Below are positions 11,608 through 62,796 of a DNA stretch of 64,000 nucleotides, in pieces (the first letter of the stretch is position 1; each line of letters begins with the position of its first letter). The notes under the pieces are model-generated. The model was not told where the DNA came from, did not search any database, and was given only the letters and a program-made list of their open reading frames with translations. The DNA lies in assembly GCA_040390725.1 (NCBI GenBank), contig JAZJXT010000001.1, positions 85,070-149,069 on the forward strand. Reading direction: 5' to 3'. Source of the DNA: Patescibacteria group bacterium (GTDB lineage: Bacteria; Patescibacteriota; Minisyncoccia; Phycocordibacterales; UBA9973). A program made the translations under genes and the position numbers.

Positions 11608-14596
11608 CGAAGAATACAGAAAACTAAATAAAGCACAAAAGGAAGCTGTGGATAGTATCGACGGGCCGGTGATGGTGGTAGCGGGGCCGGGTACTGGGAA
11701 GACGCAGATTTTGGCTTTGAGGATAGCAAATATTTTAGAAAAAGCTGGTGCACAAGCAGATGAAATTTTGTGTCTGACTTTTACGAATTCCGGGGTGAAG
11801 GCGATGAAAAAAAGATTGGCGGAATACATAGGCAGTGATTCCGAAAAAGTTCGTATTTCGACATTTCACAGTTTTGGCATAAATTTAATCGAAAAAAATT
11901 ACGAGAATTTGGGTTTTAAAAAATTACCGACGCTCCTTTCCGACGATGAAGCAGTATTTCTCGTGGATGATATTTTGCAAAATAATGATTGGGAACATTT
12001 GCGTCCACGAGCAAATCCGGTAATGTATTTTTCTGATTTAAAACATTTAATTTCTATTTTAAAAAGAGAAGGCTTAAGTCCGGAAGAATTTTTGTCATTT
12101 GTCGAGGCGGACATAGAAAATTTGAAAAATGATCCGGAAAATATTTCTTCGAGAGGCGAGACAAAAGGACAATTAAAAAAAGAAATTAAAACAAAAATAG
12201 AATCCCTCGAACGCACGCGTGAAGTTGTGGAATTTTACAGAATTTATGAAGAGAAAAAACTCGAAAATGGATTGATGGATTATGACGACATTTTGGCTTA
12301 TACTGTCCGGCTCGCAGGTGAGTTTGAAGATATCAGCGCCGACATAAAAGAAAATTATCAATATATTTTGGTGGACGAACATCAAGACTCGAGCGGTGTG
12401 CAAAATAATTTCTTGAAAGCTGTCTGGAAAGGCGAAGAGAAGCCGAATATTTTCGTAGTAGGGGATGACAGACAATTGATTTACGGTTTTTCTGGCGCTT
12501 CGATGTCGTATTTTGAAGAATTTGCGCATATTTTCGGTAAAGCAAAACAAATTACTCTTACTGAGAATTATCGCTCTACTCAAAATATTTTAGACTTGGC
12601 GGATGATTTGTTAAAGAGTTCTATTACCAATGAAAACTTAAAAAGCAATACAAAAGGTAAAGAAAAAATAAATTTAAATGAATATGATTATCCGCGTGAT
12701 GAAATATTGGGCGCAGGTTTGTATTTCAAGAATAAAATTGAAAAAAAAGAATTAAAAATGGAAGACTGCGCAATACTCGTGCCGAAGAATTATCACGTGC
12801 GAAATGCCATAGAAATACTGCACAATATGGGTGTGCCTGTTTCTGCTGGCAAGAATTTGTCATTATTTGATGTGTCGGAAACACAAAGCTTGTTACGAGT
12901 TTTGAATATTACAGCAAAGCCATATGACAGTATTCCTCTTTCGGAATCATTGCTTGATAAATACAGCGGTATAGGCGCTTTTTCTGCGCATAAATTTTTA
13001 AAATCCCTGAAACCGGATAAATTAAATATTGAAAACTTGATATCAGAAGGCAAAGACGGTGGGCTTTTTGCCGGAGAAAATGCAATTTCAAAATGGGGAA
13101 GTAAATTAAAAAATTGGATTGATACTTTATCCAATGAAAAACTTTCGGTAGTAGTCAGCACTATCGGCAATGAATTTTTAATTGATCAATCAAAAACTCA
13201 CGAAGAGTTGATACGCAACGTCGAAGTTGTGCGCAGTTTTATACATATAGCAATGCTTTTTGAGCAGAAAAATAAAAATAAAGGTTTAGTAGAATTTTTG
13301 GAATATTTCAGAAGGTTGGAAAGCTATGGTAGTCACATTTCACTTGCGACTTTTGGCGCAGAGAGCGGTGTGCAAGTTATGACTTTGCATAAATCAAAAG
13401 GGCTCGAATATAAAGCTGTTTGGATAGCGCATATGAATGAAGAAGTGATAATGTCCGAAAAGAAAAATGGTTTTACTTTGCCGGAAGAAGTTAAGAAGCG
13501 ACTCGCCGAGAAGGATATTGAATCAGTAAAAAGGGAGCTGTATGTGGCTATTACTCGCGCGAAAGAGTTTTGTAATATATCGTATTCTGCGGAGAATTAT
13601 ACCGGTGGAGAGATGGAGCTCGCACATATCATCCGCGAATTGCCGGAAAATCATTTTATAAAAAAGACACAAGAAGAAACAGAAAAAGAAATTTTAGCAC
13701 ACGGTCCGCAAATATACACGAAAGTTGTAAAAAATAAGGAAGGAAATATCTTGGAAGATATAAAAACTTTTGTACGAGAAAATTATTCGGATAGTAAAGT
13801 TTCCGTGTCATTGCTGAATAATTTTTTCGAATGTCCTTGGAAATGGTATTTTAGAAATTTTTTGAAATTACCGGAAGTGAAAAGTTCGTCACTAGGACTC
13901 GGCTCCGCAGTGCACAGCACGATAGAATTTATTTTGAAATCTGCCGAAGCAAGGCTTCGGCAGAAAGTTTCGCAAAAAGAAATTTATGAAAAGATACTAT
14001 TTGAGTTGGAAAAAGAAGGAGTTAGTAATGAAACAGAATTAAAGAAATTAGCAAAAGATGCGGAGAATGCAGTATTGTATTGGGTGGAGAATTATTATAA
14101 AACTTTGGCGAAAGATTATATGTCGGAAAGGTCATTGCAATTCCGTGATGCAAAATTCCCGGAGCTTTTGATGTATGGAAAATTGGACTTAACGGAGAGA
14201 TTGGAAAATGGCGATGTGGTTATCACTGATTTTAAAACCGGCAGTGTGAAAACAAAAAATACAATAGAAAAAATCGACGAAGAGGGTAGGCTTTCGACAT
14301 TGATGCGCCAGCTTGCGATGTATTCATACCTCGTCGCGGGCGCAGAGCGGGGCAGAGATGTGTATGCCTCCAAACTTCTTTTCCTTGAGGCAAAAAAGGA
14401 CGACAAAAACGCTTTGTATTCTACGCACATAGATATAGAACAAATAGATTTGTTGATAAAAGATATAAGGGATTATGACAATCTTCTAAAAATAGGTGAT
14501 TGGGTAAATAGACCTTGCAACTATAATTCGTATGGCAAAAATACCAAATGTGAGTATTGCAAAAGAGCTGAAATATATATGCACCAAAGTATTTAA
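11594..14596 (+). CDS. UvrD/PcrA-family helicase fused to a C-terminal PD-(D/E)xK (RecB/Cas4-like) iron-sulfur nuclease (AddA-like)
   Basis: Walker A (AGPGTGKT), DEHQD, VGDDRQLIYGF, NYRST and TLHKSKGLEY helicase motifs; C-terminal GKLDL...ITDFKTG nuclease motif; 4-Cys cluster (FECPW ... CNY..C..C). Confidence 0.85.
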   Translation: MQKFNEEYRKLNKAQKEAVDSIDGPVMVVAGPGTGKTQILALRIANILEKAGAQADEILCLTFTNSGVKAMKKRLAEYIGSDSEKVRISTFHSFGINLIEKNYENLGFKKLPTLLSDDEAVFLVDDILQNNDWEHLRPRANPVMYFSDLKHLISILKREGLSPEEFLSFVEADIENLKNDPENISSRGETKGQLKKEIKTKIESLERTREVVEFYRIYEEKKLENGLMDYDDILAYTVRLAGEFEDISADIKENYQYILVDEHQDSSGVQNNFLKAVWKGEEKPNIFVVGDDRQLIYGFSGASMSYFEEFAHIFGKAKQITLTENYRSTQNILDLADDLLKSSITNENLKSNTKGKEKINLNEYDYPRDEILGAGLYFKNKIEKKELKMEDCAILVPKNYHVRNAIEILHNMGVPVSAGKNLSLFDVSETQSLLRVLNITAKPYDSIPLSESLLDKYSGIGAFSAHKFLKSLKPDKLNIENLISEGKDGGLFAGENAISKWGSKLKNWIDTLSNEKLSVVVSTIGNEFLIDQSKTHEELIRNVEVVRSFIHIAMLFEQKNKNKGLVEFLEYFRRLESYGSHISLATFGAESGVQVMTLHKSKGLEYKAVWIAHMNEEVIMSEKKNGFTLPEEVKKRLAEKDIESVKRELYVAITRAKEFCNISYSAENYTGGEMELAHIIRELPENHFIKKTQEETEKEILAHGPQIYTKVVKNKEGNILEDIKTFVRENYSDSKVSVSLLNNFFECPWKWYFRNFLKLPEVKSSSLGLGSAVHSTIEFILKSAEARLRQKVSQKEIYEKILFELEKEGVSNETELKKLAKDAENAVLYWVENYYKTLAKDYMSERSLQFRDAKFPELLMYGKLDLTERLENGDVVITDFKTGSVKTKNTIEKIDEEGRLSTLMRQLAMYSYLVAGAERGRDVYASKLLFLEAKKDDKNALYSTHIDIEQIDLLIKDIRDYDNLLKIGDWVNRPCNYNSYGKNTKCEYCKRAEIYMHQSI

Positions 14597-40210: not shown

Positions 40211-40230
40211 CCCCGCGGTGGCGGGGTTTT
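40211..40230 (+). terminator. rho-independent terminator
   Basis: ccccgc-ggtg-gcgggg followed by tttt. Confidence 0.7.
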
Positions 40231-40238
40231 AAAAAAAT

Positions 40239-40517
40239 ATGAAAAAAAATACAAATAAAAAAAGTGCAAAAGGGGGGATGTCGGGCGGTAAGATGTTAGC
40301 AGTGAGTGCGGGGGTAGCAGCCCTAGGCGCAGGAGCGTATTATTTATTGGGTCCAAAATCAAAAGTTCATCAAAAGAAAGCCTCAGCTTTGGTGTCTAAG
40401 GTTAAAAAAGATATAGTAAGTGAGATTAAAAGAGATATTAAAAAAGCAAGACCTCTTGTGAAGAAAGTTATTAAAAAAGTCACTAATACAAAAAAGGCTA
40501 AAGTTTCAAAGAAATAA
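40239..40517 (+). CDS. YtxH-like small Lys-rich protein
   Basis: GKMLAVSAGVAALGAGAYYLLGPKS resembles the YtxH/general stress protein N-terminus; Lys-rich helical tail. Confidence 0.45.
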   Translation: MKKNTNKKSAKGGMSGGKMLAVSAGVAALGAGAYYLLGPKSKVHQKKASALVSKVKKDIVSEIKRDIKKARPLVKKVIKKVTNTKKAKVSKK

Positions 40518-52368: not shown

Positions 52369-55300
52369 TTAAGCTTTACTATTTACATAAACCTTCCTTC
52401 CAACATACACAAGACCTGCCGCTACTAATATCAATATCAAGATATTTATAGGAGTGGATTTGATATGCGTAACACTAGAGATGGCATTCGCTGTTAATCC
52501 AAGCATACTGTTGTCTGTTGTTGTGGGCGCAGGAGCAACCGTGCTTGTGTCTACTGTAGTTGTTAAATCTGCTCCAGCTGTTGTTCCTGTGTCTGTTGTA
52601 GTGCCAGATCCAGAAGTAGATACTGATGTTGTGCTTGTTGTTGTATTTTTTGTACTTGTCTTTGTAGAAGTTTTTGTTGCTGTTGCTGTGTCTGTAGATT
52701 TGGTCGTAGTGGTTGTATTAGTTGTAGTATCAGCAGGTTTTATTGTCGTTGTATCTTTTGTGGCTGTATCTGTAATTATATTTTGTGTTCCTTGATTAGG
52801 GTTAGTAGTTGTATCTGTATTTGTTCCCGTGTCTCCTGTAAAATTTCCGCCACTATTTCTCCTTATTGTATATGCAAAAGATCCAACAGCTGACATATTT
52901 AATGCATCATCACAGCCAACTGCTTGAATAGTTTGAGTTGAAGATACAGAAATTGCTCCTGAGTACAGAGTACCCACTGTGCATGACGGAGCTGTTGTTC
53001 CATCAGTTGTATAATAAATTTTTGTAGAACCAGTAGAAGAAAGAGTTACTGATTGAGTACCAGTGAATGTTCCAGCAGCTGGGGTCGCAGTAGGAGTTAA
53101 TGGGTTGCATGCAGTTGTATTGAAATTAGATTCATTACCTACGCTTGTTCCATTTGTGTTTGTAGCATATGCTCGGAAATAATATTTAGTACCGCAAGTT
53201 AGGCTTGAAAGGTCAGAAGAGAAGGAACCTATATTAAAAGGAGCGTTAGTATTGTCCACAGTTACATTTGGATTATAGTCAGCAATGTCAGTTGAAGTTG
53301 GATGTGAGGTTGTGTCGTAACCGAAGCCTCGTATTGTGACACTTGAACCTCCGGTATCGTAAATAGTGCCATTGACTGTAGAGGTATTGGCAGTAGGAGG
53401 GGTGACGTATAAATTTAGGAAACCAATATTGCTTGTACCGTGGGTTTGGATAGGAGTAAGACTATTCGTGGTAGTATTGTTGCCCAGTTGACCAACGCTA
53501 CTATCCCCCCACGCCCAGACTGTGCCGTCAGATTTAAGGGCGAGGGAAAAGTCAGCTCCATTAGTAATAGAAGTAATATCAGTTAAGCCAGAAAATTGAA
53601 TAGGGGTATGCCTATCGGTAATTGTGCCGTCGCCTAATTCACCATCGCCATTATAACCCCACTCCCAGACTGTACCGTCATTTTTTACAGCAAAAGAATG
53701 ATATTCACCTGTAGGAATATTAGTAATACCCGTAAGTCCAGAAACTTGAACGGGAGTATGTCTGTCAGTAGTTGTACCGTCACCTAGCTGACCAAAATCA
53801 TTTCTTCCCCATGCCCAGACTGTGCCGTCGGATTCTAGAGCGAGGGAACGGAAAGCACCAGTAGAAATCTTAGTAATACCCGTAAGCCCGGAAACTTGAA
53901 CAGGAGAAAGTCTATTGGTTATTGTGCCGTTGCCTAATTCACCAAAACCATTATAACCCCAAGCCCATACTGTACCGTCGGATTCTAGGGCGAGGGAGTG
54001 ATCTGTCCCAATGGAAGCAGAGATAGCAACAACTCCATTAAGACTAGAAACTTGAACTGGTGTAAGTCTGTCGGTTGTTGTGTTATCACCCAACTGACCA
54101 ACCCTGTTGCTTCCCCATGCCCAGACTGTGCCGTCGGATTTGAGGACTATAGAAAAGTCAGATCCACCAGTAATAGAAACAATATCAGTTAAGCCGGAAA
54201 CTTGAATAGGAGTGAGTCTATCAGTTGTTGTACCATCACCGAGTTGACCTTGTCCATTACCTCCCCATGCCCAGACGGTACCGTCGGATTTTAGAGCTAG
54301 GGAATGATCATGCCCTCCGGCAATATTAGTAATACCTGAAAGTCCGGAAACTTGAACAGGAGTAAGTCTATTAGTTGTTGTACCGTCACCTAATTTACCA
54401 AAATCATTTTGTCCCCACGCCCAGACGGTACCGTCGGATTTTAGAGCTAGGGAATGATCTACGCCTGCAGAAATTGTAGCAGTAAAAGTCGTAAGGCTCG
54501 GCTTAGCACATATGCTAGTTGTAAAGTTTAATATATTTCCATCTCCTTCACCATCATTAGATTTTGCATATGCTTGGTAGTCGTATTGTGTATTACAAGC
54601 AAGAGTTGTCACTATTGCGGAAAATCCTCCCACGCCTAAGCCTGTACTTAAAGTTAAAGACTGAGAAAGAACTTGACCATGAACACCATAATGAAATCCT
54701 TTCTCTGTTAAGCTAGATGATCCTTGTGAAATAATATTTCCTTGAAGTTGCCCAGAACTTCTTGTGATACTTGTCGCAACGTTAGTTGTAACATTAGGGA
54801 CAGAAGTAATAGCAGATGCACTAGGTCCAGCATTTGAGAAAGTAGAAGTTGCTTGCAGTGTCGGTGCATCTGCTCCGGTAACACCAGTACAACTTGTAGA
54901 GAGAGTACCACAACCATCGGTTGGTTGGTTGGAAGTAGTTGTATTCCAATAAGATCCGCTGATTGTTCCTTGATTAGTTCCTATAAATCCTCCAAACTCA
55001 ACAGTTCCTCCGCTTACATTACCAGAAGCGTACGAGTTTGTAATTGTTGCTCCACTTGAACTGCTTCCTACAAGTCCTCCAACATGCATTACACCACTTA
55101 CATTTCCTGTGGCATAAGAGTTAGAAATGGTAGCATTACTATTTCCGTCATTAAAACCAACCAAGCCTCCTGCGTTAGAATCAGTACATGTAACTGTTGC
55201 CGTAGAATAAGAATTCGTTATTGTTGCAGTATTGGACCCAACTAATCCTCCCACAGCACTGCTCCCAGTAACTGATCCGGTAGAATAAGAATTCGTTATT

Positions 55301-55734
55301 GTTTTAAAGTTAACTCCAGCTAAAATACCGACACCGCTATTGCCTGAAATATTCGCATTTATTATTCCAATATTGCTTATAGTTCCAGCTTGTATACCGA
55401 ATAGGCCTACAAAGTTAGTACTAGACATATTGATAGTTAGTCCGGAAACTTTAAATCCATTTCCATTTAGTGCTCCAGAAAAGGCAACATCATTATCTCC
55501 CACAGGAGTGAATGTAGTAGTGCTACAATCAATGTCATTAGCCAATTGATAACTTCCAGAAAGGTTAAGATTCATGTTTTGCAAGTCCTGGCAAGTGGTG
55601 ATGATAGTCGTAGGGGATGATGCAAAAGCAACACTAAAACCAGCACTAAATCCTGTGCTAATAAAAGCGACCAAAGTGAAAACTGATGTGATTTTTTTTA
55701 TAATATTTTTCATAATTTTTTTGTCTCCACGCAA
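52369..55734 (-). CDS. giant secreted cell-surface protein: GLUG-motif repeats, about 7 RCC1-type beta-propeller repeats, Fn3/chitobiase-like domain, Thr-rich stalk, C-terminal TM anchor
   Basis: Signal peptide; repeated GGLVG (GLUG) units; seven [28 protein letters not shown] repeats; [12 protein letters not shown] domain; T-rich linker; C-terminal hydrophobic anchor; 1121 aa. Confidence 0.7.
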
Positions 55735-57561: not shown

Positions 57562-58113
57562 TTATTTTTGAGGTTTTTCTTCTTTTACTTCTTTTGCATG
57601 GTCGATAAAAAGAATACCATTCAGATGGTCAGTTTCATGTTGAAAAATTTGCGCCAATAGACCGCTTGCGCCACGAGTAAACTTTTTTCCATTTTCATCG
57701 TATGCCTCGGCTGTGGCTTTGATTGAACGATATGTTTTACCATAGAGCCAGCGCACGGACAGGCATCCTTCAGGTAGCCATTTTTTCTCACGGGATAATT
57801 TTGATATTTTTGGATTTATGAAAACAAGATGTTTTATTTCTTTCGGCTCCCTCTCCTTATTAAGGAGAGGGTTGGGGTGAGGTTCTTCTTTTTTCATAAA
57901 ATCATCTTCAAATATTTTTCCGGAAACTAGAAAAATACGCAATGAGTAGCCTATTTGCGGGGCAGCTATGGCCACACCATCACTTTGGCTCTTGAGAGCT
58001 TCTTCCATTTCTTTTAAGATTTTTTTTATTTTTGGAGTGCAAATATCTTTTATAGGCACCTCTTTGGCGACTTCTCTGAGCACTTTTTCTTCTTTTTGAA
58101 CAATATCCTTCAT
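57562..58113 (-). CDS. def: peptide deformylase
   Basis: Motifs G.aA.QIG, EGCLSV and HETDHLNG; 183 aa. Confidence 0.9.
   Translation of the reverse strand: MKDIVQKEEKVLREVAKEVPIKDICTPKIKKILKEMEEALKSQSDGVAIAAPQIGYSLRIFLVSGKIFEDDFMKKEEPHPNPLLNKEREPKEIKHLVFINPKISKLSREKKWLPEGCLSVRWLYGKTYRSIKATAEAYDENGKKFTRGASGLLAQIFQHETDHLNGILFIDHAKEVKEEKPQK
57849..57884 (+). repeat. GC-rich palindromic mini-element (copy B) inside the def ORF, antisense to the gene, translated in frame
   Basis: ccctctcc-ttatta-aggagaggg + ttggggtgaggtt; read on the minus strand as EPHPNPLLNKEREPKE within the def insertion loop. Confidence 0.7.
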
Positions 58114-60691: not shown

Positions 60692-61789
60692 TTACTCCAA
60701 GTGCAAAAGAGTCATTTTGTGATCTTTCGGTTCGAATAGAGTAATTTGGAAATTATAAGTCTTTCCTAATGCTAACTTTTCTCGAAGTTTCGCTTCAGAT
60801 CCAAATGTGGAATTGTGTACAAGTCCAGCAACACCTTCTTTGATAGAAATCAAAGCGCCGTGTTTGTTGTACTTGATAACTACACCTTTTATGATGTCAC
60901 CCTTTTTCAATTTACCTTCATATTCTTTCCAAGGATTTTCCTTCAAAGCTTTGATAGAAAGGGAAATCTTGCCATCTTTTATTTCAATAACCTTTGCGCG
61001 GATAGGGTCGCCAACTTTAAACAATGTGCGTGGGTCTTCCACTAGGCCCCAGTCGAGTTCAGAAATGTGCACGAGCCCTTCCAGTTTATCTTCAAGTTTC
61101 AAGAATACTCCGAAGTCTACGATGCCGGCAATGGTGCAATCAAGCTCGTCGCCTACATTGTATTTGTTGAGAATTTCTTTCTTTTCTTCAGGATTATTGT
61201 CTTTTTCAGAGAAAATAAGTTTGCCTTCTTTTGGTAAAGTCGAAATCATCATTACAGAGATTTTCTGACCGACTAATTTCTTCAATTCTTTTAAGATTTT
61301 ATCTTTATCGGAATCAAGCACGCGCGGATAGTGTTCGGCTTTTAATTGTGAAGCAGGCAAGAAACCTTGGATGCCTTGCCATTCCAAAATAAGCCCGCCT
61401 TTGTTTGCGTCTTTAATTTCCAAATCCATCACTGTTTTTGCCTTGATAGCTTTTTCAGCTTCAGACCAAGTGAGGGCTTGTTTTGCTTCTTTCAATGAAA
61501 GCTCTGCATAACCGTCTTCATTTTCCACTTCGACGACTTTTGCTTTTATGATATCACCAGGATTTATTTTCTTGATGATATCTTTCGCATTAATAAACTC
61601 TCGTCCGTAAATGATACCTGTTCCAAAAGGGGAAAGGTCCACATACACTGACGACTTTTTAATCAAAATAACCGGACCTTCAACCAAGGCATCTACCTCG
61701 AGTTTTGTGGCACTTCGGTCTACTATTGATTTCAAGACTAAATTTTCATTTAAGTCTACGACTTCTTCTACTACTTTTGTTTTTTTCAT
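60692..61789 (-). CDS. rpsA: 30S ribosomal protein S1 (short, 4 S1 domains)
   Basis: Four tandem S1 (OB) repeats with the G..v.G.V pattern; 365 aa. Confidence 0.8.
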   Translation of the reverse strand: MKKTKVVEEVVDLNENLVLKSIVDRSATKLEVDALVEGPVILIKKSSVYVDLSPFGTGIIYGREFINAKDIIKKINPGDIIKAKVVEVENEDGYAELSLKEAKQALTWSEAEKAIKAKTVMDLEIKDANKGGLILEWQGIQGFLPASQLKAEHYPRVLDSDKDKILKELKKLVGQKISVMMISTLPKEGKLIFSEKDNNPEEKKEILNKYNVGDELDCTIAGIVDFGVFLKLEDKLEGLVHISELDWGLVEDPRTLFKVGDPIRAKVIEIKDGKISLSIKALKENPWKEYEGKLKKGDIIKGVVIKYNKHGALISIKEGVAGLVHNSTFGSEAKLREKLALGKTYNFQITLFEPKDHKMTLLHLE

Positions 61790-61961
61790 GTTAATTAAAA
61801 AATCCGCATTAAAGCGGATATAAGATTAGGTTCTTTGACCGGAGCCAAAGGGTTATCCCAAATCCATGCTTTTAATAAATATATCAGCCCTAGTTAGGCT
61901 TTGTGCCCATACTACTATATTCATATAAAAATGCAACCTCATCACGTCTGCTTCGCATCCG

Positions 61962-62006
61962 CCCCTCTCTATTTTTACTAAAATGTAGAGGGGTAGGGGT
62001 GAGGTG
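61962..62006 (+). repeat. GC-rich palindromic mini-element (copy C, longer loop), intergenic
   Basis: cccctctcta-tttttactaaaatg-tagagggg + taggggtgaggtg. Confidence 0.65.
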
Positions 62007-62044
62007 ATTTTGTATTGCTTCTTTTTTCTGCTATACTAAATGTC

Positions 62045-62166
62045 ATGATTCCCGTTAGAAGCCGCGGTCGCAGGGAATTTAAATAATATGAAAAAATATA
62101 ACATTATTTATTATAAATATAATTATGCTTGTCGTGGTGTTTTGACCGCGACCTGCTTCTAACGGG
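62045..62166 (+). promoter_or_regulatory. long-range inverted repeat (about 19 bp with a bulge) bracketing an AT-rich spacer of about 65 nt and overlapping the start codon of the downstream MBL-hydrolase gene; candidate 5' leader structure
   Basis: cccgttagaagc..cgcggtc (62048-62067) pairs with gaccgcg..gcttctaacggg (62143-62164); TATACT box at about 62031 upstream; spacer contains a 24-codon micro-ORF (MKKYNIIYYKYNYACRGVLTATCF). Confidence 0.4.
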
Positions 62167-62796
62167 ATGATAATTACATATTTCGGCAAGCAATTTTTTA
62201 AGATAAGCCAAGGCGAGATGGTCGTGGCTTTTAATCCCGTTTCTAAAAGTTCCAAGTCCGGTGTCTCGGCAAAGTTTGGCGCGGATATTGCATTGGTTAC
62301 TACCAATCATCCTGACTACAACGGCCTCGAACAACTCTCGCACGGCGAGCGTGTTCCTTTTGCCATCACTGGCCCGGGGGATTACGAAGTGAAAGAAATT
62401 TTCGTAAAAGGCCTCATGTCTGATTCCGAACTTTCCGGCAAAAAATATATTAACACTATTTACTCATTGGCTGTGGATAATATAAACATTGTTTTCCTTG
62501 GTGCTCTTTCTAATCCGGAAATTTCCAAAGAAGCTCGCGAGGCGATAAATGAACCCGATATTTTATTTGTGCCTGTCGGAGGTAACGGCTTGCTTGACGC
62601 AAAACAATCCGCAAAACTTGCTTCTTCACTCGAGCCGAAGCTTGTCATACCGATGGATTACGATACTGCATCTTTAAAATCTTTTTTGAAAGAAATGGGT
62701 GATGAAAAAGCCGAAGTAATGGATAAATTAACTCTAAAAAGAAAAGACCTAGAAGGTAAAGAGGGGGAAGTGATGGTTCTATCAGCGCAAGGATAA
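62167..62796 (+). CDS. MBL-fold metal-dependent hydrolase (UPF0173-like)
   Basis: N-terminus IITYFGKQFFKI..GEMVVAFNP resembles UPF0173 KITWLGHSAF.I...ILIDPF; C-terminal LFVPVGGNGLLDAKQSAKLASSLEPKLVIPMDYDT. Start may be the later Met at 62218. Confidence 0.6.
   Translation: MIITYFGKQFFKISQGEMVVAFNPVSKSSKSGVSAKFGADIALVTTNHPDYNGLEQLSHGERVPFAITGPGDYEVKEIFVKGLMSDSELSGKKYINTIYSLAVDNINIVFLGALSNPEISKEAREAINEPDILFVPVGGNGLLDAKQSAKLASSLEPKLVIPMDYDTASLKSFLKEMGDEKAEVMDKLTLKRKDLEGKEGEVMVLSAQG

Follow-up and report, generated by a model that had tools for sequence, protein, structure and literature searches.

A probable degenerate BoxC/PIT/TM triplex-motif element in the divergent rpsA/MBL spacer of a Candidatus Nomurabacteria genome, with in-frame copies in ligA and def

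Results

The sequence studied here lies at positions 61962-62006 (+ strand) of the window, by which we mean the whole 64-kb stretch of DNA analysed. It is placed between an S1-domain gene labelled rpsA (60692-61789, - strand, 365 aa, with three S1 domain stretches) and a gene for an MBL-fold protein (62167-62796, + strand, 209 aa, Lactamase_B_3), and the 377-bp length given for this rpsA/MBL-hydrolase spacer in the preliminary description was confirmed. A search with the S1-domain protein retrieved 80 species-level relatives, all of them Candidatus Nomurabacteria / Paceibacterota MAGs with 84-91% amino-acid identity, and the host is a Candidatus Nomurabacteria (CPR) genome. The divergent arrangement of rpsA and the MBL gene is kept in 75 of the 80 relatives, whose spacers measure 112-1656 nt (median about 230 nt).

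As a whole, the unit fits a three-block pattern with at most one mismatch per block. It begins with cccctctcta (CCCCTCTCTA, 61962-61971), continues through a 14-nt AT stretch (tttttactaaaatg) to tagagggg (TAGAGGGG, 61986-61993), and ends with taggggtgaggtg (TAGGGGTGAGGTG, 61994-62006). These letters agree exactly with the first reading of the locus, but the 10-nt and 8-nt arms proposed there are not fully complementary and the real stem has 7 bp: folded as ssDNA, the copy forms a GC stem, CCCCTCT/AGAGGGG, followed by a 5-bp AT inner helix and a 4-nt apical loop. Sequence and fold together delimit, on the + strand, the pyrimidine block CCCCTCT, or C-stem (61962-61968), an AT-rich stem extension with its apical loop (61969-61986; inner helix ATTTT/AAAAT), for which the near-identical TATTTTATTAAAATG is found in the related locus L140, and the first purine block AGAGGGG, or G-stem (61987-61993). 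Loop 2, of only 2 nt (TA, 61994-61995), leads to the second purine block GGGGTGAGGT, the 'tail' (61996-62005), a mirror repeat of the G-stem and a potential third strand, as indicated by 8 of 10 triad-compatible positions and by mirror covariation. This copy has two substitutions, a C>T at 61970 relative to the canonical 9-mer CCCCTCTCC and a G>T at 61986 relative to the canonical GGAGAGGGG. The 'expanded loop' of the preliminary description is mostly a degenerate AT-rich stem extension closed by a 4-nt loop, in common with the orthologous L140 copy. With a fold energy of -8.3 kcal/mol (z = -2.7), the intergenic hairpin is weaker than those of the two coding copies described below (ligA, -12.3 kcal/mol, 11 bp; def, -10.8 kcal/mol, 10 bp). 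A doubtful reverse-oriented remnant of the tail, CCTCATCAC (61937-61945, + strand; 7/9 to CCTCACCCC), pairs with the tail in the fold and, together with a tgcttcgca mini-hairpin, would give a 'double-tailed' form like that of locus L192; however, the L122 spacer, which has no element, contains the neighbouring 'ttcgcat' as well.

The statement that the intergenic element is the same as copies in ligA and def was upheld, the same three blocks being found at 852-892 and 57846-57885, both on the + strand. The ligA copy is intact and lies in frame as (I) plus 14 residues, with 11/11 triads, and the def copy, also intact, is read as EEPHPNPLLNKEREP from a gene on the - strand, with 10/10 triads. 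In the 64-kb window, GGGGTGAGGT occurs exactly three times (881, 57874 and 61996) and, when one mismatch is allowed, six times against 1.14 expected, while CCTCTC-N3-24-GAGAGG occurs twice against 0.03 expected. Exactly three copies of a fuzzy three-block pattern are present in the window, all on the + strand, and there were none in 100 second-order Markov simulations of it. The observation is correct and well above chance.

Other repeats and trends in the window were recorded in passing. The G-rich strand of all three copies is the window's + strand, and GC skew is positive there throughout (0.03-0.21; n=3). A second palindromic repeat family of 26 nt, TCTGCCGAAG-(CCTTG/CAAGG)-CTTCGGCAGA, is present at 1104-1129 and 13940-13965, the two sites being 100% complementary; one copy is located within ligA, where it reads NSAEALLRQ, and the LigA of PDB 1b04 is 3 residues shorter at that point. 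Direct repeats with a 150-nt period and 66-74% identity (five 300-nt copies in register), at 53446-54501 and 55417-55454, presumably belong to a repetitive protein-coding region. The stretches 62062-62100 and 40213-40251, considered as a second copy pair, proved to be only a small hairpin upstream of a gene.

In a full-text literature search, the block sequences were traced to Holder et al. (2015), and the element is of an already described kind, its newness lying in the host lineage and in the variant register. BoxC is an E. coli repeat that was rediscovered as the 'potential intrastrand triplex' (PIT) and later named TM or TMECO (Bergler 1992; Hoyne and Maher 2000, 2002; Holder et al. 2015, PMC4666352). 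Each member of the family has a pyrimidine block, then the complement of that block, and lastly a purine block in mirror image that can fold back to serve as third strand; the published pattern, CCCTCNCCC-N3-6-GGGNGAGGG-N3-GGGNGAGGG, has 3610 occurrences in 262 proteobacterial genomes, E. coli carries 23 sequences of the form CCCTCTCCC-loop-GGGAGAGGG-(TTA or CCG)-GGGTGAGGG, and cyanobacteria have abundant G/C-rich relatives (Holder et al. 2015, PMC4666352). According to the same source, a purine-motif triplex is formed in vitro by the G-rich strand when isolated, none having been seen in duplex DNA or in vivo, and RNA does not form such triplexes. The motifs go together with local variability of the genome, have patchy copy numbers among close relatives, and in E. 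coli are found upstream of ORFs more often than downstream, with five inverted pairs, no reported link to transposons and no promoter, terminator or other function found for the PIT elements (Holder et al. 2015, PMC4666352).

The window copies share with BoxC/PIT/TMECO the three-block design with a mirror purine block containing one T·A:T position, the near-identical core CCCTCTCC / GGAGAGGG / GGGGTGAGG, and a multi-copy distribution in either orientation, sometimes as inverted pairs, with presence varying among relatives. The hairpin (7 bp plus the 5-bp AT helix in the intergenic copy, 11 bp in ligA, 10 bp in def) and the triad-compatible second purine block are found in all three, and the element behaves as a dispersed repeat with presence/absence variation, since there are three copies in 64 kb, 8 of 75 related spacers are filled and the ligA and def loops are filled in some homologues. 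Global identity to the E. coli sequences (Holder et al. 2015, Table 1) is 77% for ligA, 83% for def and 62% for the intergenic copy. A blastn search with the def copy matched 500 E. coli genomes with 84-86% identity over 37 nt, at E values of only 0.04-0.1 because the query is short. A 21-base pattern, CCCTCTC-N4-24-GAGGG-N1-6-GGGGTGAGG, was present in at least 120 viral-contig stretches, with 175 copies among the matches listed, in very different sequence backgrounds. These stretches, the 23 E. coli copies and the fact that relatives have this spacer both with the element and lacking it bear out the earlier proposal that it exists as an independent unit.

The window copies also differ from the E. 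coli form. The strict published TMECO regular expression matches none of the three, because the register of their blocks is 4+2 (CCCC-TCT-CC), where that of E. coli is 3+3 (CCC-TCT-CCC); the viral-contig sample commonly has the 4+2 register too. In the intergenic copy, loop 1 is long and AT-rich, with 18 nt against the published 3-6 nt, and loop 2 has 2 nt; the stem of the window type is extended by T:A pairs that are matched by T's after the tail, and the host is a CPR bacterium. Moreover, two of the three window copies are in frame within the essential genes ligA and def, whereas those of E. coli K-12 are reported to be exclusively intergenic. A G-quadruplex was also considered and discarded; the E. 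coli form has four G3 runs and the CPR form runs of 2-4-4-2, and therefore this feature is not conserved.

In the preliminary description, the tail was suspected to be a target or recognition sequence. This is not what the comparison supports: the tail corresponds to the third block of the family, mirroring the G-stem and co-varying with it in run lengths. Among 175 unique copies, the G-run of the G-stem next to loop 2 correlates with the first G-run of the tail (outer runs, r = 0.74) and the G-run next to loop 1 with the last one (inner runs, r = 0.63), in counts taken over copies that are not phylogenetically independent. These correlations show mirror symmetry and not direct-repeat symmetry, and they speak of architecture, not of function. 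When the tail is aligned antiparallel to the purine arm, the contacts are G·G, A·A or T·A. Of the copies whose hairpin is extended by a T:A pair, 29/31 have T or A as the base following the tail, compared with 22/40 of the others, and this association between T:A extension and a following T or A accounts for the T in the motif originally written as GGGTGAGGT.

The element is present in the rpsA/MBL spacer of only 8 of the 75 relatives, in either orientation, and therefore represents an insertion polymorphism. The element-free spacer of L122 aligns on both sides of the insertion, and in the L132, L147 and L140 spacers there is an inverted pair of elements with each tail abutting a -35-like hexamer. 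A C>T in the C block is common to the window copy, L140 and L132, and the AT-rich inner sequence is common to the window copy and L140 (TATTTTATTAAAATG against TATTTTTACTAAAATG); the window copy has an additional G>T in the G block. Judging from these letters, the window copy is orthologous to that of L140, both coming from a common ancestor, and has decayed further. Its C>T and inner sequence, held in common with L140, indicate that it was inherited and that the 'expanded loop' is an old stem extension. Three changes make up its decay: C>T in the C block, G>T in the G block, and a stem extension that is AT-rich and imperfect.

On both sides, the element is bordered by promoter-like sequences. 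The one facing rpsA, TTGCAT-N16-TAGTAT (61909-61936, - strand), is found in degenerate form in 40/76 spacers (relatives plus window), and the one facing the MBL gene, TTGTAT-N16-TATACT (62010-62037, + strand), ends 7 nt before an ATG at 62045. In 53/76 spacers (relatives from L122-L201 plus window), the MBL ATG is preceded by a TATAAT-like box that ends at a distance of exactly 7 nt from it, a distance that suggests a leaderless MBL mRNA in the lineage. We infer these flanking promoters from their conservation among spacers, and a sigma-70 scan called neither of the two sites. Given the positions of the hexamers, the element fills the 73-nt gap between the two divergent -35-like sequences.

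Two further features of the spacer deserve mention in their own right. The rpsA leader (61790-61890, - strand) is conserved in nearly all related spacers examined, with a motif GGGTTACCC..AAATCC and a hairpin, ATCCGC-TTTAAT-GCGGAT, immediately 5' of the start codon, which the scan labelled 'terminator-like'; it may be an S1 autoregulatory leader. On the other side, a 118-nt imperfect palindrome (62050-62167, within 62045-62171) has perfect 13-bp terminal inverted repeats, TCCCGTTAGAAGC, and a flanking direct (A)TGAT, and its sequence has the look of a MITE-type insertion placed precisely at the original MBL start codon. That original ATG (62045) stands 7 nt after the TATACT box, as in the relatives, and the new ATG (62167) is made of the last base of the palindrome plus the duplicated TG. 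No other copy of the palindrome or of its 13-bp inverted repeat was found in the window or in the 201 fetched loci.

The position of the element between two promoter-like sites raises the question of a functional cis-element, acting as a supercoil-driven switch or insulator (cruciform or H-DNA) or as a protein-binding site by the -35 hexamers. Its exact fit in the 73-nt gap, the way in which the inverted pairs of L132, L147 and L140 fill that gap up to the hexamers, the recurrence in the same spacer of 8 related species and the preference of E. coli motifs for upstream positions (PMC4666352) all agree with such a role, and the nucleotide-level conservation of the blocks in ligA, taken together with the recurrence in the spacer, could indicate function. 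However, 67 of the 75 relatives keep the gene pair without the element, spacers without the element, such as that of L122, have the promoter-like motif too, the window copy is a degenerate one, and PIT elements have neither promoter nor terminator activity, nor has their triplex been seen in vivo (PMC4666352). Furthermore, the placement is equally well explained if this is the only unconstrained stretch of the spacer, and we regard a regulatory role as unlikely. Instead, we infer that the intergenic element is a passenger, tolerated where a compact spacer has its only unconstrained part, and not a regulator.

An intrinsic terminator or a promoter within the element was likewise discarded, as terminator and sigma-70 scans gave neither signal there, the hairpin being followed by TAGGGGTGAGG and not by a T-run. 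As the flanking genes diverge, there is no upstream transcript that would need termination. The hairpin would also form in RNA, and the intergenic tail contains GAGGTGAT, which we take to be complementary to the 3' end of 16S rRNA, so that a transcribed element, such as a small RNA, a terminator or a leader structure, had to be considered. A Shine-Dalgarno reading of GAGGTGAT was rejected, for the sequence is confined to the intergenic copy and the nearest downstream start is the TTG of a 23-codon ORF. As to RNA in general, searches in Rfam gave nothing relevant for the whole window at gathering score and, for the spacer at E <= 10, only chance-level hairpin matches, of which MIR8643 reflects just the hairpin shape of the neighbouring 118-nt element. 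The element also lies upstream of both promoter-like sites, where neither gene transcribes, lacks a T-run after the hairpin, has no SD-like extension in its ligA and def copies, and is inserted in coding regions in both orientations. Purine-motif triplexes, moreover, do not form in RNA (PMC4666352), and a role as transcript is extremely improbable.

The copies in ligA and def are true in-frame insertions. Compared with solved LigA structures, the LigA of the window is longer by 11 residues, which follow immediately on the conserved IPLxL; in most close homologues the sequence is IPLxLxxP(F/Y/C)PEY, and the same 11-residue insert is found in P0122, P0149 and P0216. Because def is not syntenic with rpsA in the relatives, its insertion was examined by protein search and metagenome scan, and PHP(N/D)PLLxKER was found at the same variable loop in about 20 of the best 120 homologues and is absent from the rest. 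At the DNA level, the blocks of the carriers are identical while their loops and flanks differ. In four ligA genes, synonymous variation affects 0/8 block codons against 14/19 conserved flanking codons (Fisher p=0.0006), and the block sequences of ligA and def are maintained as nucleotide sequences, which could be due to selection, to gene conversion among copies or to repeated insertion. Among the results of the analysis, only this conservation of the in-frame copies came as a surprise, and it is more notable than the intergenic copy itself.

The same loops are also occupied by other repeats. In Nomurabacteria, both the def loop (57830-57900; L210, L231 and L243; P0008 and P0034) and the ligA loop (840-900; P0127-P0129, P0154, P0158, P0182 and P0187) are hot spots for different hairpin-plus-mirror families, and those of the def loop include CCTCCCCC/GGGGGAGG/GGAGGGGG (L210) and CTCCCCC/GGGGGAG/GAGGGGG (L243). 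Small hairpins nested within loop 2 (L231 and L199) and a tandem double insertion (P0008) were also observed.

Discussion

Taken as a whole, the intergenic sequence is very probably a degenerate member of the BoxC/PIT/TM family, an inherited insertion polymorphism that has since decayed and that would be a tolerated passenger and not a regulator. The anatomy of such an element comprises a pyrimidine block (canonical CCCCTCTCC in the lineage), its complement GGAGAGGGG, a loop of 2-3 nt and the mirror purine block GGGGTGAGG followed by a T. Where the G-rich strand becomes single-stranded, the first and second blocks would pair as a hairpin and the third block could lie antiparallel on the purine arm via G·G:C, A·A:T and T·A:T triads, as the E. 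coli version does in vitro. Any effect would presumably operate through non-B DNA, formed under negative supercoiling or while the G-rich strand is unpaired. In being homopurine-homopyrimidine, with mirror symmetry and purine-motif triads, the element resembles H-DNA and other mirror-repeat tracts, but its triplex would be intrastrand, formed by three consecutive blocks on one strand, and it is a discrete repeated unit as opposed to a long tract.

How these elements spread is a separate matter, for which the preliminary description had offered an analogy with REP/BIME sequences that mark operon boundaries. As short, GC-rich palindromes that are dispersed, sometimes arranged as inverted doublets and variable among strains, they do look like REP, BIME or REPIN elements, and a REP/REPIN- or MITE-like non-autonomous element could be mobilised in trans by, e.g., an HUH Y1 enzyme (RAYT) acting on the ssDNA hairpin. 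The dispersal and presence/absence polymorphism of the copies, the inverted pairs reminiscent of REPIN doublets (with five pairs in E. coli), the insertion into the ligA and def coding loops in both orientations and the patchy copy numbers among close relatives (PMC4666352) are compatible with mobility of this kind. Nevertheless, there are no terminal inverted repeats or target-site duplications at 61962-62006, 852-892 or 57846-57885, although both are present in the neighbouring 62050-62167 element, and the GTAG-type 5' tetranucleotide of REPs was not found, the upstream flank being rich in pyrimidines, with T in 76% of copies at -1 and C in 58% at -2 (..catccg in the window copy). The location is also at odds with the analogy, both as family membership and as boundary marker: REP/BIME copies sit at 3' gene ends or between convergent or co-directional genes, whereas here two of the three copies are within ORFs, the third lies between divergent genes and their promoter-like sites, and none is at an operon 3' end. 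REPs lack a mirror third block, and their sequences are species-specific, co-varying with RAYT in each species, while the same BoxC-type sequence is found across phyla, in E. coli, CPR bacteria and many viral contigs. We know of no RAYT associated with the BoxC/PIT/TM element.

The variable loci of E. coli point in the same direction. At fabI-ycjD (L286/L287), MG1655 lacks 12-13 nt within two motif copies in comparison with strain 118UI, and one of these deletions lies between GAGGGT repeats of the G-stem and the tail. At adk-hemH (L289/L291), the motif lies in a 157-nt block that about half of the E. coli genomes have, the others having about 53 unrelated nt in its place. Neither locus has a target-site duplication or precise boundaries, and the two correspond to internal slippage deletions and block replacement and not to clean insertion. 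No transposon link has been reported for the E. coli copies either (PMC4666352), and mobilisation of the REP or MITE type is very unlikely.

Insertion of palindromes into genes has a parallel in the Rickettsia palindromic elements (RPE), which were reportedly described by Ogata et al. in 2000. Like the ligA and def copies, RPEs are palindromic repeats placed in frame in protein-coding genes of a reduced genome and tolerated in surface loops, but they are of about 100-150 bp, restricted to Rickettsia, unrelated in sequence and devoid of mirror or triplex architecture.

By itself, the intergenic copy is nothing unusual, a decaying representative of a repeat family known in the literature since 1992, in which the same sequence of roughly 35 nt occurs in enterobacteria, cyanobacteria (as reported), CPR bacteria and many viral contigs. 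To this, the window adds that the family reaches Patescibacteria, in a register-shifted and AT-extended form, and that it includes in-frame insertions into loops of essential genes, where the blocks resist synonymous change. These additions make selection, homogenisation and re-insertion testable against each other with comparative data. A speculative and rather doubtful extension of these results is that the triplex-motif repeats of the CPR are not inert debris, their blocks being actively maintained even in ligA and def while unrelated families target the same loops. If that were true, there would be a conserved trans-acting process that recognises DNA folded as a hairpin plus third strand, either a dedicated mechanism of mobilisation or gene conversion or one with a structural part in replication or in the handling of supercoils, and the small genomes of the CPR would be tractable for finding such a process.
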